Part shown: one piece after another, positions 1 to 20,519 of the stretch
Layout of the letters: each line of letters starts with the position of its first letter
Position numbering within the stretch: the first letter of the stretch is position 1
Origin: a virus
Lineage: Duplodnaviria > Caudoviricetes
Virus record (IMG/VR): IMGVR_UViG_3300026442_000101
Length of the DNA: 64,000 nt
Reading direction: 5' to 3' (one strand)
Position numbers and translations under genes: made by a program
The notes under the pieces: generated by a model
Databases searched by the model: none
What the model was told of the DNA's origin: nothing
What the model saw: the letters and a program-made list of their open reading frames with translations, nothing else

Positions 1-118
1 TGTTGAGCGGTCGCAGTTAGGATTTCGGGTCGTACCTAAATTTTCCCCATTGCTGGGCGATGTCCTGATGTAGCGTTTTGGACGATTGCGACACTTTAGC
101 GATACCACGTTGGAAAAT

Positions 119-245
119 AGGTCTCCACCCGTGTTTTCGAGACACGGACCTCACTCATGTACCTGATCCACGCCGAACCCCGAAGGGATGGGCATGTTCG
201 GAATCGAACCGAAAGAGTGCGCTCTACCATCTGAGCTAGGCGGAG
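119..245 (-). ncRNA. Double-headed tRNA-like RNA A: outer tRNA body with a nested permuted tRNA remnant; no anticodon; A-CCU 3' end
   Basis: Minus strand reads CTCCGCC TA GCTC-AGATGGTA-GAGC G CACTC [T TTCGG-TTCGATT-CCGAA CATGCC CATCCC-TTCG-GGGTTC GGCGTG GATCAGGTACAT] GAGTG AGGTC CGTGT-CTCGAAA-ACACG GGTGGAG A CCT. Acceptor, D, anticodon and T stems all pair. Confidence 0.8.
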
Positions 246-252
246 ATAAAAC

Positions 253-978
253 TTACGCGCAGCGGTAGTTCGGGTTCTCGAGAACAACCTCGAGGTCGAA
301 GAACAGCTCGGTCTTGATGCTGGACGGCACGGTGATGGAAAGCAAGGCGCGCTCAGGATCTACCTTCAGGTAGATGTCTTCAGCACCAGGGATGCTGAGG
401 GTGTAGTTCTGAGTACGCTGACCTTCGATCTGCTTGATAGCAGAGAGGTCATGGGACAGCTTGATACCATCGGCCGTGCGGACGTTGTTGAAGCGGATAG
501 CGCCGACGCTGTCGGTCAGATCCAACACGCTGGGATCGCCGAAGCCGAACACGTTGAACTTACCATCGACCAACGGCAGGTTCTTGGCTTCGAGGCGACG
601 CTCGGTAGCGCGGCCAATGCGACGACGCAGGACAGTGGAGTACTTGTCCATGAACGCGCCTTGCTGCATCATCATGTCTACATCGAGATCGGAAAGACCT
701 TCAGGCTTGGCGCCCTGACCCACGTTGTAGAGGAACGAGCACAGACCTTTGTGACGCGCGGTCAGTTGCGCTTGCTCGATAATCATGCGCTGGACATGCG
801 CCGGGCGGCTGTCGATGTGACCGAGCGGCAAGTGATCTTTCAGGAACTGCTCTTCCGATTGCCAGGTTACGTTGCCGGCTTCGTCTTTGACGTTGTAGCC
901 AGGCTTACCATCTTCGCCGGATTGAGACGACCAGGCGAGGACAGTAACGTTCTTGTTCACCAGATAGTTCTGAGTCAT
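253..978 (-). CDS. Hypothetical protein; N-terminal half resembles the crAss001_48-like/DUF2829-associated phage domain
   Basis: 241-aa ORF with phage-like codon usage; GYNV...VTWQSEEQF and VQRMIIEQAQL...L.SFL motifs recalled from that family (not searched). Confidence 0.6.
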   Translation of the reverse strand: MTQNYLVNKNVTVLAWSSQSGEDGKPGYNVKDEAGNVTWQSEEQFLKDHLPLGHIDSRPAHVQRMIIEQAQLTARHKGLCSFLYNVGQGAKPEGLSDLDVDMMMQQGAFMDKYSTVLRRRIGRATERRLEAKNLPLVDGKFNVFGFGDPSVLDLTDSVGAIRFNNVRTADGIKLSHDLSAIKQIEGQRTQNYTLSIPGAEDIYLKVDPERALLSITVPSSIKTELFFDLEVVLENPNYRCA

Positions 979-1007
979 GAAAGATCTCTGCGGGTGGTTG
1001 GATGAAT

Positions 1008-1095
1008 AGGGCGTTCCTCGTGGATTTGAACCACGGACCTTCGGCGTGTCTTTTAGCTAAGGGGCCGACGCTCTAACCAGCTGAGCTAAGGAACG
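1008..1095 (-). ncRNA. tRNA-like RNA B with an 18-nt expanded anticodon loop and C-CCU end
   Basis: CGTTCCT TA GCTC-AGCTGGTTA-GAGC G TCGGC-[CCCTTAGCTAAAAGACAC]-GCCGA AGGTC CGTGG-TTCAAAT-CCACG AGGAACG C CCT. Confidence 0.85.
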
Positions 1096-1100
1096 AGAAT

Positions 1101-1213
1101 AGGGGCTTCCTCGAAGAATCGAACTTCGGACTTCCGCCAGGTATGGTGAGCCTGCCCCATTTAAGGGGCCAGGAGGCTCGAAGACGGCACTCTACCAACT
1201 GAGTTAAGGAAGC
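1101..1213 (-). ncRNA. tRNA-like RNA C with a 44-nt structured insert replacing the anticodon loop and C-CCU end
   Basis: GCTTCCT TA ACTC-AGTTGGTA-GAGT G CCGTC-[TTC GAGCCT CCTG GCCCC TTAAAT GGGGC AGGCTC ACCATACCT]-GGCGG AAGTC CGAAG-TTCGATT-CTTCG AGGAAGC C CCT. Confidence 0.85.
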
Positions 1214-1220
1214 ATGTAGC

Positions 1221-1496
1221 TTAAAGCAAACCTTCCGAGATCATGAACTGTTCGAGGTCATCAAAGAAACCATCGTACAGGATTTCGGTACCGGCAAAAC
1301 CTTTCCAGCGCCACCACTTAGGTTCTTTACCCATAGCGGTGATGCTTTCTTCGGTTTGCTTTCTGAAGAAATTACCGACCTTATCGAACGCAACGAGGTC
1401 GGTGGTGTAGAGATCCCCGTGGACGTGCAGCAGCCTGATTATCTTGGCTTCCAGTTCTGGACTAACCTCGAGTTCTTTCAGTTGCTTATTGCGCAT
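1221..1496 (-). CDS. Hypothetical protein (~91 aa)
   Basis: The ORF-track start (1553) lies inside tRNA-like RNA D; the first ATG outside it is at 1496 (MRNKQLKELE...). Confidence 0.6.
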   Translation of the reverse strand: MRNKQLKELEVSPELEAKIIRLLHVHGDLYTTDLVAFDKVGNFFRKQTEESITAMGKEPKWWRWKGFAGTEILYDGFFDDLEQFMISEGLL

Positions 1497-1513
1497 CACA
1501 AGTTTCTCTGAAT

Positions 1514-1664
1514 AGGGAGCACTGACTGGAATTGAACCAGTGACCTTCGTCAAGTTGGCCTTACGCTCTAACCAACTGAGCTAATCACCCATACGGGCGA
1601 TGCCGGACTCGAACCGGCGACCTTAAGGGAGGGACGACGCTCTACCAAACTGAGCTACAGTGCT
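1514..1664 (-). ncRNA. Double-headed tRNA-like RNA D: outer tRNA split at the anticodon around a complete circularly permuted (Val-like) tRNA body; C-CCU end
   Basis: AGCACTG TA GCTC-AGTTTGGTA-GAGC G TCGTC CCTC CCTTA AGGTC GCCGG-TTCGAGT-CCGGC ATCGCCC GTAT GGGTGAT TA GCTC-AGTTGGTTA-GAGC G TAAGG CCAACTT GACGA AGGTC ACTGG-TTCAATT-CCAGT CAGTGCT C CCT. Pairings cross as AGCACTG/CAGTGCT, TCGTC/GACGA, TAAGG/CCTTA and GGGTGAT/ATCGCCC. Confidence 0.9.
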
Positions 1665-1671
1665 ATTGAAT

Positions 1672-1821
1672 AGGTAACTCTAGCAGGGAATCGAACCCGC
1701 TGCCTTCCTCATGTTTGCGTCTACCAATTCCGCCATTGGCCGATAGTGCCGGCCAAGCAGGACTCGAACCTGCAATCCTTTTCAGGAAGGTGAGGACGCT
1801 CTACCAATGAGCTACAGAGTT
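1672..1821 (-). ncRNA. Double-headed tRNA-like RNA E: outer tRNA with a nested permuted Leu-type (class II) tRNA body; A-CCU end
   Basis: AACTCTG TA GCTC-ATTGGTA-GAGC G TCCTCA CCT TCCT-GAAA-AGGA TT GCAGG-TTCGAGT-CCTGC TTGGCCG GCACTAT CGGCCAA TG GCGGAATTGGTAGACGC AAACA TGAGGA AGGCA GCGGG-TTCGATT-CCCTGC TAGAGTT A CCT. TGGCGGAATTGGTAGACGC plus a variable-arm hairpin is tRNA-Leu-like. Confidence 0.88.
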
Positions 1822-12317: not shown

Positions 12318-14381
12318 TTACGCGACTTTCGAATTGCCGTGCAGTTCGAACCACCGGTCAGTAGTTTCGGTGATGTGCTGATCGACCTTCGCACAGATGT
12401 CGGTGTGGTTAGGATCAACCACGAAACCGCCATCCATGAAGATCGGTTTCAGCAGACCAGACTTGACGTGGATCTCGGCGATCTTCATATCTTGCTCTTG
12501 GTTGAGCACGATACCTTCATCGCTGTCGATCAGCGCCAGCAGGCCTTTGGCCGACTTCTTCAGACCGTCACCGGTGGCTGGGTCTTTGTACAGCTCGACC
12601 ATCTCACCATTGACCATGGTCGCGGTAGCCTTAACGGCAATGCCGAAGGTATCGCGAGTCAGGTAGTTGTAGGTGTAGGAGCCGACGCCGAACACGACGT
12701 TGCACGATGCGAAACCTTTGATCGCCAGACGACGGCAGATTTCTTCAGCGCGGTGTACGGTGATGGAATCGCCGTAGATCAGGCCGATGCGTTCGTGCAG
12801 AACTTTGTAGCCGCGTTCGGTTTCGGTACCGCCGAAGGTTTCCCACAGCAGCTCGATGGCACCCTTCTCTTGCGCCGACAGCTCGACCTGTTCGATCTTG
12901 TAGCCGTTGCGGTAAGTGCCCTTACCCATGACCATGACTTCGACACCGCGCAGCTCGAGCAGGTCATGCAGCTCACGATACGCTTTGAAGCGGACCGGGT
13001 CGGTGCAATCGGCGCTGATCGGGAACGGGTAGTCGAACAGGGCGGCGGAGCCCATCACGTCGGTCATCAGTTCGTCGTAGTAGCTGTGATCAACCGCAGG
13101 CAGATCGGCCTTGACCTGACTGATGGTGCGGGAGATCGCTTTACCGGCGATACTGGTGGCTTTGTGAATCTTGCCTTCCGGATCTTTGAAGTAGACGAAC
13201 TCCGGCTTGTAGTTCACCATCTGAGCTTCGGCAGCAAGCTGGTCCAGGATTTCCACGCCGCAGATGATTTCTACAGGATCGCCCGAGTCAGGACGGATGA
13301 CCAGCTTGGCCATGCCGTTCTCGTCAGGCAGACGAGCCAGGATCTCTTCCTTCAGCGAAGGCAGGACCGAGGTCAGTACGCCAAAGAAGTCGAAGCTGTC
13401 GCACACCAGGCCCAGCATGCCGGTCTTGAACTTGACGGTCAACATTTCCTTGATGAAGCCACGCTCTGCTTCCAGGCGCATGCCTTTCAGTTCAGAGAGC
13501 AGCTCTTCTTCGGTAGCGCCTTCGGCTCGACGAGCCTTGACCATCTGACGCAGCCGACTCAGGATGTTCGCGGTTGCCACCGAGTGCTCAGTCGCAGGAA
13601 TGGTACCTGCGATCATCACCTTCTCGGCATCGCCGTTGTACATCTGCTCGATGTAGTCGATGGCCGGCATGGTATCACTGCCGGTGAACACGCGCAGGTG
13701 AGCCGCGCCGCAACGAGCGCCATCTTCCATACCCGACATGCCACGGTACGAGAAGTCGTGAGCCTGGAACTTGACGAAGTCGGTAGGCACGCCGGTGATC
13801 TTGGCCCACTTGGTCAGGACGCGACGGTACTCGAACGCAATGGTGCCGACGGTAACCTGTTTCCAGGTCATGTTCGACATGATGGTTTCGAGGAACTCGG
13901 CCAGCCAGAAGAACTCGGAGCCTTCATCGATGACATTACCGTTGCTGTCGTAGATGACGTACATAGGCACGCCAATCGGCAGACGGGTACCTTCTTCCAC
14001 GCCCAGGATACGCAGCGGCAGGTGACCGATATCGTGCAGGTTGGCAAGGGACTTGGCCGATACCTTGTCTTTGCCGATGTAGGTGTCGCAGCGGCGCTTG
14101 AACTTGTAGAGCACGTCGGACTTCGGCTTGCTGAAGAAGCTCTCTTCCCACATGCTGACGATTTCATGCAGCGCGGCTACGTGACCGGTGACCAGGATCT
14201 TACGGTCCCACATCGAACTACAACTCGGCGATCGAGCGAAGATCTTGTCGCTACGCGCGGTGCTGTTGGCGTAGAGGAACGACGAACCGTCGGGATACAT
14301 CGGACCATGGCCTTGTTTGTAGCCATCGGTACCGGTAGGGCCGAACATCTTGAAAGCTTTGAACAGTTTCTTGAGAGACAT
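12318..14381 (-). CDS. nadV: Nicotinamide phosphoribosyltransferase-like protein (NAMPT; Namat-like in NARP1)
   Basis: TDGYKQGH, HDFSYRG, GSDT, PATEHSV, DSFDFF, VIRPDSGDP, GLIYGDSIT, FGVGSY, TRDTFG.A.K and KKSAKG motifs; two insertions give 687 aa. Confidence 0.93.
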   Translation of the reverse strand: MSLKKLFKAFKMFGPTGTDGYKQGHGPMYPDGSSFLYANSTARSDKIFARSPSCSSMWDRKILVTGHVAALHEIVSMWEESFFSKPKSDVLYKFKRRCDTYIGKDKVSAKSLANLHDIGHLPLRILGVEEGTRLPIGVPMYVIYDSNGNVIDEGSEFFWLAEFLETIMSNMTWKQVTVGTIAFEYRRVLTKWAKITGVPTDFVKFQAHDFSYRGMSGMEDGARCGAAHLRVFTGSDTMPAIDYIEQMYNGDAEKVMIAGTIPATEHSVATANILSRLRQMVKARRAEGATEEELLSELKGMRLEAERGFIKEMLTVKFKTGMLGLVCDSFDFFGVLTSVLPSLKEEILARLPDENGMAKLVIRPDSGDPVEIICGVEILDQLAAEAQMVNYKPEFVYFKDPEGKIHKATSIAGKAISRTISQVKADLPAVDHSYYDELMTDVMGSAALFDYPFPISADCTDPVRFKAYRELHDLLELRGVEVMVMGKGTYRNGYKIEQVELSAQEKGAIELLWETFGGTETERGYKVLHERIGLIYGDSITVHRAEEICRRLAIKGFASCNVVFGVGSYTYNYLTRDTFGIAVKATATMVNGEMVELYKDPATGDGLKKSAKGLLALIDSDEGIVLNQEQDMKIAEIHVKSGLLKPIFMDGGFVVDPNHTDICAKVDQHITETTDRWFELHGNSKVA

Positions 14382-15597: not shown

Positions 15598-17418
15598 TTA
15601 TACAGCGACAGGGATGTCCATGAACGGACCGTGGGTATAGCCGGTGATCTCAACATCGCTGAACTTGATGTCGTCGATGTTGTCGAACTTACCGTTGATG
15701 ACCATGCGGGCATCGAAGTCACCGTCGGAGTCGCGCCAGATCAGCTCTTTGATCGCATCGACCTGGTTGAGGTAGATGTGAGCATTGACGCCGACCGTTA
15801 CGAGTTCCATCGGAGCGTGGTTGGTGACGTGAGCTACCATGTGCAGCAGGTAGGCGTACTGAGCTACGTTGAACACGGCTCCCAGCGGCAGGTCGCTGGA
15901 ACGCAACAGGACGAAGCAGTTCAGGCCACGACGCGGAATGTCTTGCTTGTCGAGATATTCATCGACGCTACCAGCACCGCCTTGGGGAAGCTCGACGTCA
16001 TCGCGATGTTTGTACTTCAGCAGCTTCACGCGTTGCGCCATGGTGAGCACTTGCGAGGTGAACTGGAAGTACAGGTGACATGGAGGAAGCGCTGCCTGCC
16101 AGGTACGGCCGGGGTTGTGAGCAGTCACGATGATCCGACGGTCATCCGGGTTGGTGCGTAGCGTATCGATACAGTTCTGCAACTGGTCGATGCTGCGGTG
16201 CATGACCGAGTGACCGAGAGTGGTGAACTCTGGCTGAATCTCGCCCCACTTCAAGTAGCCCTGCTTGATGTAGTCGGAGAAGCTAGGGACGGCATTGTCA
16301 GCATTGGACACTACTTGCCAATCCTGCCATTTGCGCCACTGTGCGCCGTAACCACCCGCACCGATGTCAGCTTCAAGCAGAGGCCACGCATTGATGCCGA
16401 AGAAGTCCAGCAGTTTCTCTACCCGTTCCACTTGGGCGTTGTTGAGGATATCGTCCTCGAACTTGCCGTTGCGGAACACGACCACCGGGACGGTCTTGGT
16501 TTCAGCAGGATCGTCCTCACCCATCATGATAGCGCCAATGATTCGGCTCCATTCATGTTCGCGGTTCTTCGACAGGCGCGCCAACCGACGCTTGAGCGAC
16601 AGGCGCTTCGGCACGTTACGGCGGCGTGGGATGCCGCTGTAGTCGAGGATGTGGTTGAAACCGTCGACCTGGTCGCGATCGAACCCGAAGTTACTGGCGA
16701 TGTTCGGATGCTTGAAGTCCAGGTACTCGTACGGCTCACGACCACCGCCCGGATGGAACCCATGGAGGAACGGCACCACCATGTAGACCTTCCCCGTCTG
16801 TATAGCCAGCTCGATACGTTCTTGGGTGGTGAGTGTGTCGCCTTCCACAGCGTCCCAGAACTCGTACACGCGAGCTACGCCAAACTGGTCAAGGAACTTG
16901 TGGATCTCATGGATGTCAGCATCGGCCAGATTGGAGTAAGTCACCTGCTTCGAGCTTCGCCCGGGCAGCAGCGAAAGTCTTTCGGGACCACCAATGCCGC
17001 TGATCTCGATGCGACGTTCGATGAACTTCTGGATCGCCTCGGTATTTTCGAGGGTGGTGCACGACAGGTCGATACGCTGCTGGCAAGTGCGGCGCCTGAT
17101 GCGCGGCTCATCGTACTTGTCGGTGCCCTTGATGAACCAGCTGTCCCAGATACCTACCTTGTTGTCGCGCAGGTACTTGATGTTGGTGTTACCGGAGACG
17201 AACCAATGCATCTCGTGCTGGAACTTCTCAGGTAGGATACCGCGCAGGCTGATGATCGGCATCTGACCGAACTGGCAGTCAAAGCGCATGACCGCTGCGT
17301 GAGTGGCGTAGGTACCCACCCCGGTGCGGTCCTCTTGGAACCAGCCGTGATCGAGGCAATGGCGATACTTGTCGACGAACTGAGCATCAACAAGGTTGTG
17401 GATTACTGGATCGGACAT
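15598..17418 (-). CDS. thyA: Thymidylate synthase with large insertions
   Basis: DRTGVGT, EMHWFVSG.TN, IWDSW, YGAQWR, NPDDRRIIV, LPPCH..FQF, RSSD..LG..FNVAQY and NAHIYLNQ motifs. Confidence 0.96.
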   Translation of the reverse strand: MSDPVIHNLVDAQFVDKYRHCLDHGWFQEDRTGVGTYATHAAVMRFDCQFGQMPIISLRGILPEKFQHEMHWFVSGNTNIKYLRDNKVGIWDSWFIKGTDKYDEPRIRRRTCQQRIDLSCTTLENTEAIQKFIERRIEISGIGGPERLSLLPGRSSKQVTYSNLADADIHEIHKFLDQFGVARVYEFWDAVEGDTLTTQERIELAIQTGKVYMVVPFLHGFHPGGGREPYEYLDFKHPNIASNFGFDRDQVDGFNHILDYSGIPRRRNVPKRLSLKRRLARLSKNREHEWSRIIGAIMMGEDDPAETKTVPVVVFRNGKFEDDILNNAQVERVEKLLDFFGINAWPLLEADIGAGGYGAQWRKWQDWQVVSNADNAVPSFSDYIKQGYLKWGEIQPEFTTLGHSVMHRSIDQLQNCIDTLRTNPDDRRIIVTAHNPGRTWQAALPPCHLYFQFTSQVLTMAQRVKLLKYKHRDDVELPQGGAGSVDEYLDKQDIPRRGLNCFVLLRSSDLPLGAVFNVAQYAYLLHMVAHVTNHAPMELVTVGVNAHIYLNQVDAIKELIWRDSDGDFDARMVINGKFDNIDDIKFSDVEITGYTHGPFMDIPVAV

Positions 17419-19130: not shown

Positions 19131-20519
19131 TTATTCACCCTTCTCGTCAGCGACGAAACCACGGCTGCGCGGCAGCATGAATTCAGCGATAGATTGGACC
19201 GTGTCGTACGGACGCTGATCGTTGGCATCGATGACGACGTGCAGTTCGATACGACCATCGTTCAAGGTTCTGATCGATACCGAGCGGTCGATGCCTTCCA
19301 GACGCTGGAGAGGATGTTCGTCGATAGGTGTCGAGATCGCAGCGCAGCCGCGAACAGCTTCGCCGATGCGAGCCGGGATGATGGCGTCAAGGCTGCGCGA
19401 CGGCTCCGGGAGATCGAACCAACGTTCAGCCGGGTAGCGGCTACCTTTACGAAGATGGTGGGTGCCGAAGTTGGTTGCGAAGTTGTCGACCACGACCATG
19501 ACATCGACGAGGACATCAGGTTTGTTGGTCATTGCCATCAGCATGTTGCGGATGACATTCGCGCTGACTTCGGTATTCAGCGAATACAGTTGTGCGGTAT
19601 TCCAGGTGGTCTCGACCCAGAATGGCACAACGGCGTTCATGAAGTTCAGGCCTTCGGTGTACTCGACGAATAGATGGCCAGCAGGCGCACCTTCCTGAAT
19701 CGCAGTACCGACCTGAGGAGCAATGATGAAGCCTGGGAGGACTTCAACACCGCCGGCAAGCCAGAGGTCAGGGCAGTTTTCGGTCGGGATCGGCTTAACC
19801 GGATCCATTGCACGGCCTGGCTCGATATCTGCGTGAGCACCTTCGGCCATCAACGAGTCGATGGTCATGGTCGGACGCTTGCGCAGATCACGATCGATCT
19901 CACCCAGGGTTGGGAGGATCTGTGCGAACACTTGCTCGACGTCGACGTTAGCGTCAATGACGCGATAACGATCAGGCTCGCTGAGAGCGAGGTCCAGATA
20001 AGCCTGCTCGGCGCGGGCGTAGTAATCGGAACCCTTGAGCTCCATCGCATCGCGAGTGGAACCTTCAGCGCGCTGGAGTTTGGTGTTCACATCAGCGGTC
20101 AGCAGGAAGGTCATGTCAGGAACGACCTCACCCACGACATGTTTGTCGAGCATGTTGATCAGTTCGACAGGCGCACCGCCGCCGGCGATCTGGTAGGCAT
20201 AGCTCGAATCGACATAGCGATCGGTAATGACGATCCAGCCGTCAGCCAGCAGCGGCTTGATGAGCTGGTTGATGTGAATGTCGCGTGCTGCGAAGAACAA
20301 CAGGAGCTCGGCGATGTCGGAAATCTCCTGCCCGTCCTTCCTTTCGGCAAAAAGAAATTCACGCAGCTTTTCCCCTGCTGGGGTCCCACCTGGCTCGCGA
20401 GTGTAGTGCACTCGGAAACCAGCATCTTCGTAAAACTTGCCAATCTTGGCGCGTTGAGTACTCTTGCCTACCTTGTCGGTACCTTCAAGAGCAATCAGAT
20501 AACCTTTCTGTTGAGTCAT
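19131..20519 (-). CDS. tmk: Thymidylate kinase fused to an unknown ~245-aa C-terminal region
   Basis: IALEGTDKVGKSTQ, TREPGGT, VITDRYVDSSYAYQ and PDMTFLL motifs in the first ~215 aa. Confidence 0.92.
   Translation of the reverse strand: MTQQKGYLIALEGTDKVGKSTQRAKIGKFYEDAGFRVHYTREPGGTPAGEKLREFLFAERKDGQEISDIAELLLFFAARDIHINQLIKPLLADGWIVITDRYVDSSYAYQIAGGGAPVELINMLDKHVVGEVVPDMTFLLTADVNTKLQRAEGSTRDAMELKGSDYYARAEQAYLDLALSEPDRYRVIDANVDVEQVFAQILPTLGEIDRDLRKRPTMTIDSLMAEGAHADIEPGRAMDPVKPIPTENCPDLWLAGGVEVLPGFIIAPQVGTAIQEGAPAGHLFVEYTEGLNFMNAVVPFWVETTWNTAQLYSLNTEVSANVIRNMLMAMTNKPDVLVDVMVVVDNFATNFGTHHLRKGSRYPAERWFDLPEPSRSLDAIIPARIGEAVRGCAAISTPIDEHPLQRLEGIDRSVSIRTLNDGRIELHVVIDANDQRPYDTVQSIAEFMLPRSRGFVADEKGE

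Follow-up and report, generated by a model that had tools for sequence, protein, structure and literature searches.

Anticodon-less tRNA mimics, including two-headed forms, in the tRNA cluster of a phiKZ-like soil jumbo phage

A 64,000-nucleotide stretch of viral DNA (IMG/VR record IMGVR_UViG_3300026442_000101; hereafter the window, by which the whole stretch is meant) encodes five tRNA-like elements, E1 to E5, on its minus strand beside a cluster of ordinary tRNA genes. The elements fold as tRNA bodies, are conserved in related phages, have no anticodon and lie within a tRNA operon. Together they represent a real and conserved family of anticodon-less tRNA mimics that is apparently undescribed, and three of them are two-headed, with a second tRNA-like body carried on the anticodon stem of the first. 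Literature searches found no tailed-phage tRNA-like RNA described as nested or as lacking an anticodon, and the two-headed design was found in no RNA library either, in agreement with an earlier reading of the sequence alone (the original prediction), which did not know the nested arrangement from phages; the tRNA nested in a tRNA belongs here to an ordered, conserved array that comprises at least five different anticodon-less designs. Judged from the alignments, the five elements are selected designs and not decayed genes, a view already taken in the original prediction and borne out by helices that are kept through compensatory changes in close contigs and in distant cultured phages. The best-supported mechanism, to which a probability of about 0.55 is assigned, is that of conserved non-decoding tRNA mimics acting by shape mimicry and protein binding.

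Architecture of the elements

Segmentation by hand, with complementarity verified by script, confirmed the five minus-strand elements that had been predicted (Table 1). The outer helices of E1 to E4 are perfect (acceptor 7/7, D 4/4, anticodon stem 5/5, T 5/5). In E5, the outer acceptor AACUCUG/UAGAGUU is followed by discriminator A and then CCU; its outer T stem is 3/5 paired in the window and 5/5 in relatives, and an extra C stands between the T stem and the 3′ strand of the acceptor. GG is present in the D loops, and the T loops conform to UUCRAnn except in E1 (CUCGAAA). The original prediction that all stems and elbow determinants are kept therefore holds for the helices of E1 to E4 and for the D-loop GG, but not for the outer T stem of E5 or the T loop of E1. 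It was right that no element has a 7-nt U33 anticodon loop, the place of which is taken by an 18-nt loop or by an insert of 44–81 nt, either a hairpin or a second permuted body.

In E4 (type A), the inner body (1559–1628) consists of an anticodon-type stem of its own (5 bp), a T arm, an acceptor hairpin of 7 bp with GUAU as its closing loop, and a D arm; inner and outer stems are joined via an internal loop of 4 x 7 nt. The inner body of E5 (type B; 1711–1791) comprises a variable-arm-like hairpin, a T arm, a closed 7-bp acceptor hairpin and a Leu-type D arm, lacks an anticodon stem of its own and uses the outer one. That of E1 (type C; 157–214) is reduced to a T arm, a hairpin of 6 bp + 3 bp with a UUCG loop, and a GG-bearing strand that resembles a D loop, with no D stem. 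The insert of E3 (type D; 1139–1182) is a bulged hairpin with the apical loop UUAAAU, followed by single-stranded A-CCA-UACCU, and the loop of E2 (1046–1063) contains a 3-bp stem (CUU/AAG) capped by the hexaloop AGCUAA, the AGCU core of which is palindromic. The junction loops measure 4+7, 4+8 and 1+6 nt (6–8 nt on one side and 1–4 nt on the other among orthologues) and contain no U33. Unconstrained RNAfold recovers the nested folds of E1, E3 and E5. Folding z-scores are modest, at -1.0 to -2.8 (E3 -2.7), so thermodynamics alone is insufficient to single out the elements. A reading of E4 as tandem tRNA genes was rejected, as its acceptor strands then fail to pair, whereas 8/8 helices pair when it is read as nested.

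Conservation and covariation

Three uncultured IMG/VR contigs are close relatives of the window (3300028597_000124, 3300038441_000923 and 3300042136_000012; the related loci are numbered L007, L008 and L009). All three keep every element in unchanged order, with a flanking protein that is 67–76% identical. When E4 is aligned across these four sequences and the cultured Xanthomonas phage RTH11, 14 of its 42 pairs are changed on both sides, against 4.2 in shuffles and 1–4 in slid controls, and 94.7% of alignment cells are paired versus 29–40% when slid. The inner acceptor hairpin of E4 shows total sequence turnover, from AUCGCCC/GGGUGAU to AUGGGUC/GGCCCAU, and is still 7 bp long. The other four elements hold 131 pairs, of which 104 are invariant, 13 compensatory, six altered by wobble changes and eight broken; four of the broken pairs belong to a small hairpin that is deleted in relatives and two to the T stem of E5. 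The 3-bp loop stem of E2 covaries (CUU/AAG here, CGU/ACG in relatives) around a conserved AGCU palindrome in the hexaloop, and the insert of E1 is identical over 45 nt in the window and the three relatives. Homologues that retain compensatory base pairs thus exist, the lack of which had been named in the original prediction as favouring recombination-scrambled pseudogenes.

The same relatives carry a sixth element, X0 (Table 1), which consists of a tRNA body with a 64-nt insert ending in a hairpin and then CCA, and has the tail C-CCUAGC. It is positioned after a tRNA-His gene that is also absent from the window.

Distribution in other phages

Distant homologues were sought by sensitive BLAST and with a covariance model (R1) built on the E4 alignment, which scores E5 at 79 bits. 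The search with such a model, as proposed in the original prediction, led to the same designs in cultured jumbo phages. RTH11 encodes a type C followed by a type A element, Burkholderia phage FLC9 encodes types B, D and C collinearly with the window, and Ralstonia phage FLC4-3B encodes type D; none of these is annotated. Helices are kept in these elements at ~60% sequence identity, and those of RTH11 and FLC9 stand back to back among tRNAs with no open reading frame (ORF) between them. Seoulvirus phages, such as Escherichia coli phage Lh1B (L006 2505–2577), encode a tRNA body with its anticodon stem capped by UUCG. Given that RTH11 and FLC9 are cultured and carry the same types, the family is directly testable, and their unannotated elements exemplify how tRNA finders and phage annotations silently miss such genes.

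With R1, which also scores plain and tandem tRNAs and may miss other element types, no two-headed element was found in phiKZ, phiPA3, 201phi2-1, DT01, Xoo-sp14, RSL2, LucasX or Eowyn. The matches of R1 in these genomes are plain or tandem tRNAs. As the array is present in distant phages but was not detected with R1 in these genomes, it is old but patchy. Matches of R1 in phiKZ, pPa_SNUABM_DT01 and FLC9 (L005 3566–3732) are tandem decoding tRNAs and were discarded as two-headed RNAs. Two pattern scans of viral contigs recovered nothing beyond the three close relatives, a scan of bacterial genomes with the invariant E1 insert gave no match, and a metagenome scan added no orthologue, although it did recover Leu-like mimics of a different class. 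This class occurs in other jumbo phages (metagenome loci L018–L026), is open-ended and has a branched insert of 90–130 nt in place of the anticodon arm.

Other unannotated or misannotated tRNA-like pieces were encountered during these searches. In Lh1B, the UUCG-capped body is followed by an odd, unannotated tRNA with a CAU anticodon; the locus is also present in Salmonella SPFM phages, in whose Seoulvirus records the stretch with the UUCG-capped body is annotated as ‘hypothetical protein’. Xanthomonas phage Tenjo (43 kb, siphovirus-sized; L051 ~385–470) has an unannotated anticodon arm (GUU), T arm, closed 7-bp acceptor hairpin and D arm, that is, a free-standing permuted tRNA-like unit, which is also found in Usme, Tabio and Sopo. 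In pPa_SNUABM_DT01 (L046, MW735835 ~171760–171840), an unannotated piece near two normal tRNAs consists of a T arm and a 7-bp acceptor pair, GAGGACG/CGUCCUC, around ~45 nt, with no D arm.

Relationship to known RNA families

The outer bodies resemble canonical tRNAs in their 7-bp acceptor, D arm with GG, 5-bp anticodon stem, variable loop AGGUC, T arm with UUCRAnn, discriminator followed by CC, and placement in a tRNA operon. They differ in the missing anticodon loop, in the U at position 76 in this clade, in the discriminator C of four of six elements, and in that they cannot decode. They thus possess the cloverleaf arms and elbow nucleotides of the tRNA family without its readable anticodon in a 7-nt U33 loop. 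The Rfam tRNA model (RF00005) scores E2 at 54.7 bits with a 17-nt insertion and E3 at 48 bits with a 41-nt insertion, and gives only half-matches to E4 and E5. The undetermined or chimeric calls expected of ARAGORN materialized solely for E2, reported as tRNA-???; E1, E3, E4 and E5 were not called, and no tmRNA was found.

The tRNA-like domain of tmRNA is itself an anticodon-less tRNA mimic, and some lineages have two-piece permuted forms. Unlike tmRNA, the elements have no mRNA-like reading frame and no G3:U70, position 3:70 being C-G or U-A in all five. Engineered tRNA scaffolds offer another comparison: cargo RNA grafted by Ponchon and Dardel on the anticodon stem of a tRNA is reportedly processed and protected by the cell like a tRNA. 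E3 and E2 reproduce this layout exactly, and the family is a natural counterpart of such scaffolds; here, however, the arrangement is conserved in nature, and three of the elements bear a tRNA body as their cargo.

On sequence and structure, the closest known relative is the permuted tRNA-like module of YrlA (Y RNA-like A), a bacterial Y RNA that partners bacterial and phage Ro60/Rsr, a relationship overlooked in the original prediction. The E4 inner body matches, at 1561–1626, positions 23–85 of the YrlA model RF02553, which form its tRNA-like domain, with 37.7 bits (E 5e-6), and the inner bodies of E5 and E1 show the same order of parts when compared by hand. Shared features are the permuted T arm, closed acceptor-like hairpin and D arm, the elbow nucleotides, the lack of an anticodon and the placement of the permuted module on a helix that replaces the anticodon stem; the 7-bp acceptor of E4 and E5 is as in the Mycobacterium smegmatis RNA. 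By the same comparison, the elements are not YrlA members. The Ro60-binding stem is unmatched (positions 1–22 and 86–114), the score stays below the gathering value of 69 bits, and where YrlA has its Ro60 handle there is a whole tRNA body with open ends; type D and E2 have no YrlA-like part. No TROVE domain was detected in the complete genomes of RTH11, FLC9 and Lh1B or in the 30 large window ORFs that were scanned. Chen et al. (2014; PMC4201824) showed that tRNA enzymes modify the tRNA-like domain of YrlA and that the M. smegmatis RNA, with its 7-bp acceptor, undergoes cleavage by RNase P and addition of CCA. YrlA also occurs in phages beside Ro60, and tandem tRNAs are a recognized source of false YrlA matches (PMC4201824). 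Other YrlA matches in the region are tandem-tRNA false positives of this kind and were set aside.

The E5 inner body also shares its D arm (GCGGAAUUGGUAGACGC) and T arm (GCAGGUUCGAGUCCUGC) with the Leu-like mimics of L018–L026, which suggests, at the level of sequence, that both belong to a broader superfamily. In E5, however, the Leu-like body is closed and permuted and the outer tRNA body holds the ends, whereas in L018–L026 the Leu-like body has free ends.

The 3′ ends

All five elements are followed by DNA-encoded N-CCUAUU, whereas the four neighbouring decoding tRNAs encode CCA. When both strands of the 64-kb window (128 kb) are counted, CCTATT is present at only seven sites, five of which are element ends. 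The rule that mimics end in CCU-A and decoders in CCA is strict in the window and the three close relatives; every mimic of this clade encodes U for A76 and, as noted above, four of six carry the rare discriminator C. The shared CCU end of the original prediction does not extend to the whole class. N-CCA is encoded in RTH11, in FLC4-3B and by one element of FLC9, the two other elements of which have neither CCA nor CCU, and on this comparison the CCU end is a trait of the clade and not of the class. The rule may reflect addition of A76 once the end has been trimmed, or avoidance of charging.

A second CCA is found inside type D. Its insert hairpin is always followed by N-CCA or CCA: UC-A-CCA-UACCU in the window, A-CCA-GACCU and A-CCA-ACCU in relatives, G-CCA-CCA in FLC9 and A-CCA-CUA in FLC4-3B, and X0 likewise has GGCA-CCA. 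Among the close relatives, L007 and L008 retain this motif. As a hairpin with a single-stranded NCCA has the topology of an acceptor microhelix, type D can be read from its sequence as a tRNA body with a second acceptor end, which would fit the theme of a second head.

Conserved spacer words follow tRNAs and mimics alike and are particular to each phage: UUYCGUAGUAG in FLC9 (L005 2260–3300) and GUUUCAA in RTH11 (L004 2240–2680), with AUUC(AAU) as the corresponding word in the window phage. These are possibly processing signals.

Proposed mechanism

tRNA mimicry is a recurring viral strategy. The elements would be transcribed with the phage tRNA operon and excised in the manner of tRNAs, with RNase P acting at the 5′ end and trimming at the 3′ end. 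In place of an anticodon loop, the anticodon stem bears a second module, namely a YrlA-type permuted tRNA body in E4, E5 and E1, an acceptor-like hairpin with N-CCA in E3, and a small hairpin with a palindromic loop in E2. As no codon pairing is possible, the RNAs would act by shape mimicry, through binding of proteins that recognize the tRNA elbow, the acceptor helix or the CCA region. Having two binding sites per molecule, the two-headed forms could be bivalent, tethering two partners or clamping a dimeric one. Y RNAs tether Ro60 to an exonuclease, and the elements would extend the idea of a tRNA-like module as protein-docking surface to RNAs without Ro60. The partner is probably host-encoded or an unrecognized phage protein. 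RNase P, RNase Z and the CCA enzyme all measure the 12-bp acceptor/T arm; that the inner acceptors of types A and B are exactly 7 bp despite sequence turnover suggests that something measures this arm here. Possible targets include enzymes and toxins whose site of action is the elbow or the acceptor end.

A further-reaching version of this mechanism is put forward more tentatively. The elements could constitute a new class of phage RNA, bivalent tRNA mimics (two bodies, or a body and an acceptor-CCA microhelix) that capture, bridge or block host proteins measuring tRNA shape, with processing or decay nucleases and acceptor-end toxins as candidate targets. If true, this would be a new RNA-based principle of host takeover or counter-defence.

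Several observations weigh against action as protein-binding mimics. No partner gene stands out: RTH11, FLC9 and Lh1B, besides having no TROVE/Ro60, encode no CCA-adding enzyme (PolyA_pol), RtcB and RNA ligase are inconsistent among carriers (FLC9 has RtcB, RTH11 neither), and no neighbour protein is common to the array of this phage and those of RTH11 or FLC9. Pfam and PHROG gave nothing informative for the ORFs that neighbour the array in the window. Only in E1 does conservation of the insert exceed that of the chassis, and the relatives are few (three close and three distant lineages). Finally, 22 soil runs labelled metatranscriptomic contain the locus, but in contigs of 43 kb with an even depth that does not distinguish RNA from phage DNA; these contigs contain no ends, joints or non-templated CCA at the elements, and show neither transcription nor processing.

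Alternative explanations

Phage tRNA clusters counter tRNA-targeting defences, and the mimics might be decoys that titrate or block tRNA-cutting or tRNA-modifying effectors of host immunity. A precedent is available in a phage anti-CRISPR that acts via tRNA-shaped RNA fragments bound to host RNases (PMC11662646), and the U for A76 and frequent discriminator C of the clade would suit a dead-end ligand of CCA-end enzymes. However, RTH11, FLC9 and FLC4-3B do not share the CCU end, and the array has no linked gene for defence or counter-defence. Nucleases of the PrrC, RloC and PARIS type are unlikely targets, given that the anticodon loop at which they recognize and cleave tRNA is missing; for the same reason, the uncleavable decoys of anticodon nucleases envisaged in the original prediction are mechanistically weak, and no evidence for them was found. 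A role in anti-defence is considered possible but unlikely on balance.

Less probable again is a role as adaptors of the Y RNA type, with the permuted head serving as a YrlA module and the RNA bringing in a Ro60-like ring or an exoribonuclease to carry out RNA quality control or decay. The match of the E4 inner body to YrlA speaks for such a role, as do the occurrence of YrlA in phages and its recognition by tRNA enzymes (PMC4201824). A mycobacteriophage sequence also matches the inner body of RTH11, and mycobacteriophages probably carry YrlA. The low score against the YrlA model, the unmatched Ro60-binding stem and the lack of a TROVE domain in RTH11, FLC9, Lh1B and the 30 window ORFs scanned nonetheless argue against it.

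The elements could alternatively be tRNA-like punctuation with no function of its own, directing cuts by RNase P and RNase Z and so releasing or stabilizing mRNAs or cargo hairpins. In the window, a conserved gene lies between E2 and E1 and a small ORF between E4 and E3, and the layout equals that of engineered tRNA scaffolds. In RTH11 and FLC9, however, there is no ORF between the elements for such cuts to release; moreover, ordinary tRNAs would suffice for punctuation, yet elaborate second bodies are conserved over large distances. This explanation is judged improbable, if anything a shade more so than that of Y RNA-type adaptors.

That the elements are tRNA pseudogenes scrambled by recombination would agree with their location in a tRNA cluster and with the imperfect outer T arm of E5 in the window. 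The compensatory changes and conserved order across seven lineages exclude this for practical purposes, and the same evidence argues against introns. Maturation into decoding tRNAs, either by removal of short introns or by excision and circularization of the permuted tRNA (permuted tRNA genes of algae mature through circular intermediates), has in its favour the RtcB of FLC9 but is hardly credible, since E4 has only 11 unpaired nt for two loops, the lengths of which differ from one orthologue to the next without ever giving a U33 loop, removal of any contiguous 11 nt from the E2 loop likewise fails to yield one and that loop forms a covarying stem, RTH11 lacks both RtcB and RNA ligase, and there is no group I intron match.

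Genomic setting

The window belongs to a phiKZ-like soil jumbo phage and encodes a tail tube, a head-to-tail protein and several internal head proteins of the phiKZ type. The nearest cultured relative of the tail tube, from Pseudomonas phage pPa_SNUABM_DT01, is only 43% identical, and INPHARED contains no phage near-identical to the window. On the minus strand, a terminator-like hairpin is followed by a small ORF, the four decoding tRNAs, a non-coding stretch and then E5 to E1, among which two protein genes are interspersed (Table 1). The hairpin is likely the upstream boundary of the transcription unit of the cluster.

Table 1. Coordinates of the tRNA-like elements and other features. Positions are those of the window unless a contig locus is named.
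Feature	Position	Strand	Remarks
E1	119–245	minus	two-headed, type C; outer tRNA body and reduced second body
E2	1008–1095	minus	tRNA body, 18-nt loop in place of anticodon loop
E3	1101–1213	minus	type D; tRNA body, 44-nt insert on anticodon stem
E4	1514–1664	minus	two-headed, type A; outer tRNA body and complete circularly permuted tRNA body
E5	1672–1821	minus	two-headed, type B; outer tRNA body and permuted Leu-type body
X0 (sixth element)	L008 5590–5723 (= L001 5286–5419); L007 53–186; L009 10454–10587		present in three relatives, absent from window
241-aa gene	253–978	minus	weak crAss001_48-type domain; between E2 and E1, position kept in 3/3 related contigs
Non-coding stretch	1822–2123	minus	~300 nt, conserved; between tRNA-Gln and E5
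tRNA-Gln-UUG	2124–2201	minus	encodes CCA
tRNA-Asn-GUU	2210–2285	minus	encodes CCA
tRNA-Tyr-GUA	2362–2445	minus	encodes CCA
tRNA-Ile-GAU	2455–2530	minus	encodes CCA
Terminator-like hairpin and U run	2912–2932	minus	upstream of cluster
Nucleotide-metabolism genes	15598–17418, 19131–20519, 12318–14381	minus	

The non-coding stretch between tRNA-Gln and E5 is ~85–90% identical in two related contigs, with its 3′ two-thirds nearly invariant, and ends in a GC hairpin and CUUAUUC that resemble the tails of the tRNA mimics. It has no Rfam match, five compensatory pairs among three sequences and a folding z-score of -0.8; its context makes it a possible further RNA of the cluster. Gene-free stretches of 300–600 nt are also contained in the tRNA clusters of RTH11, FLC9 and Lh1B. 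At the other end of the array, no convincing ORF follows E1 in positions 1–118 (minus strand), where relatives have a protein gene.

The phage is present at ~300–1000 depth, in contigs of 33–43 kb, in soil libraries labelled metatranscriptomic from 24 studies of 2018–2019. In three of four runs aligned, the longest record is one of 234 kb, which was not among the pieces matched to the window; such runs may yield the complete genome. Elsewhere in the window, nucleotide-metabolism genes encode proteins with large extra domains: a 606-aa protein (15598–17418) has thymidylate synthase as its C-terminal 260 aa, a 462-aa protein (19131–20519) has thymidylate kinase as its first 200 aa, and a protein of the NAPRTase family (12318–14381) is 687 aa long.

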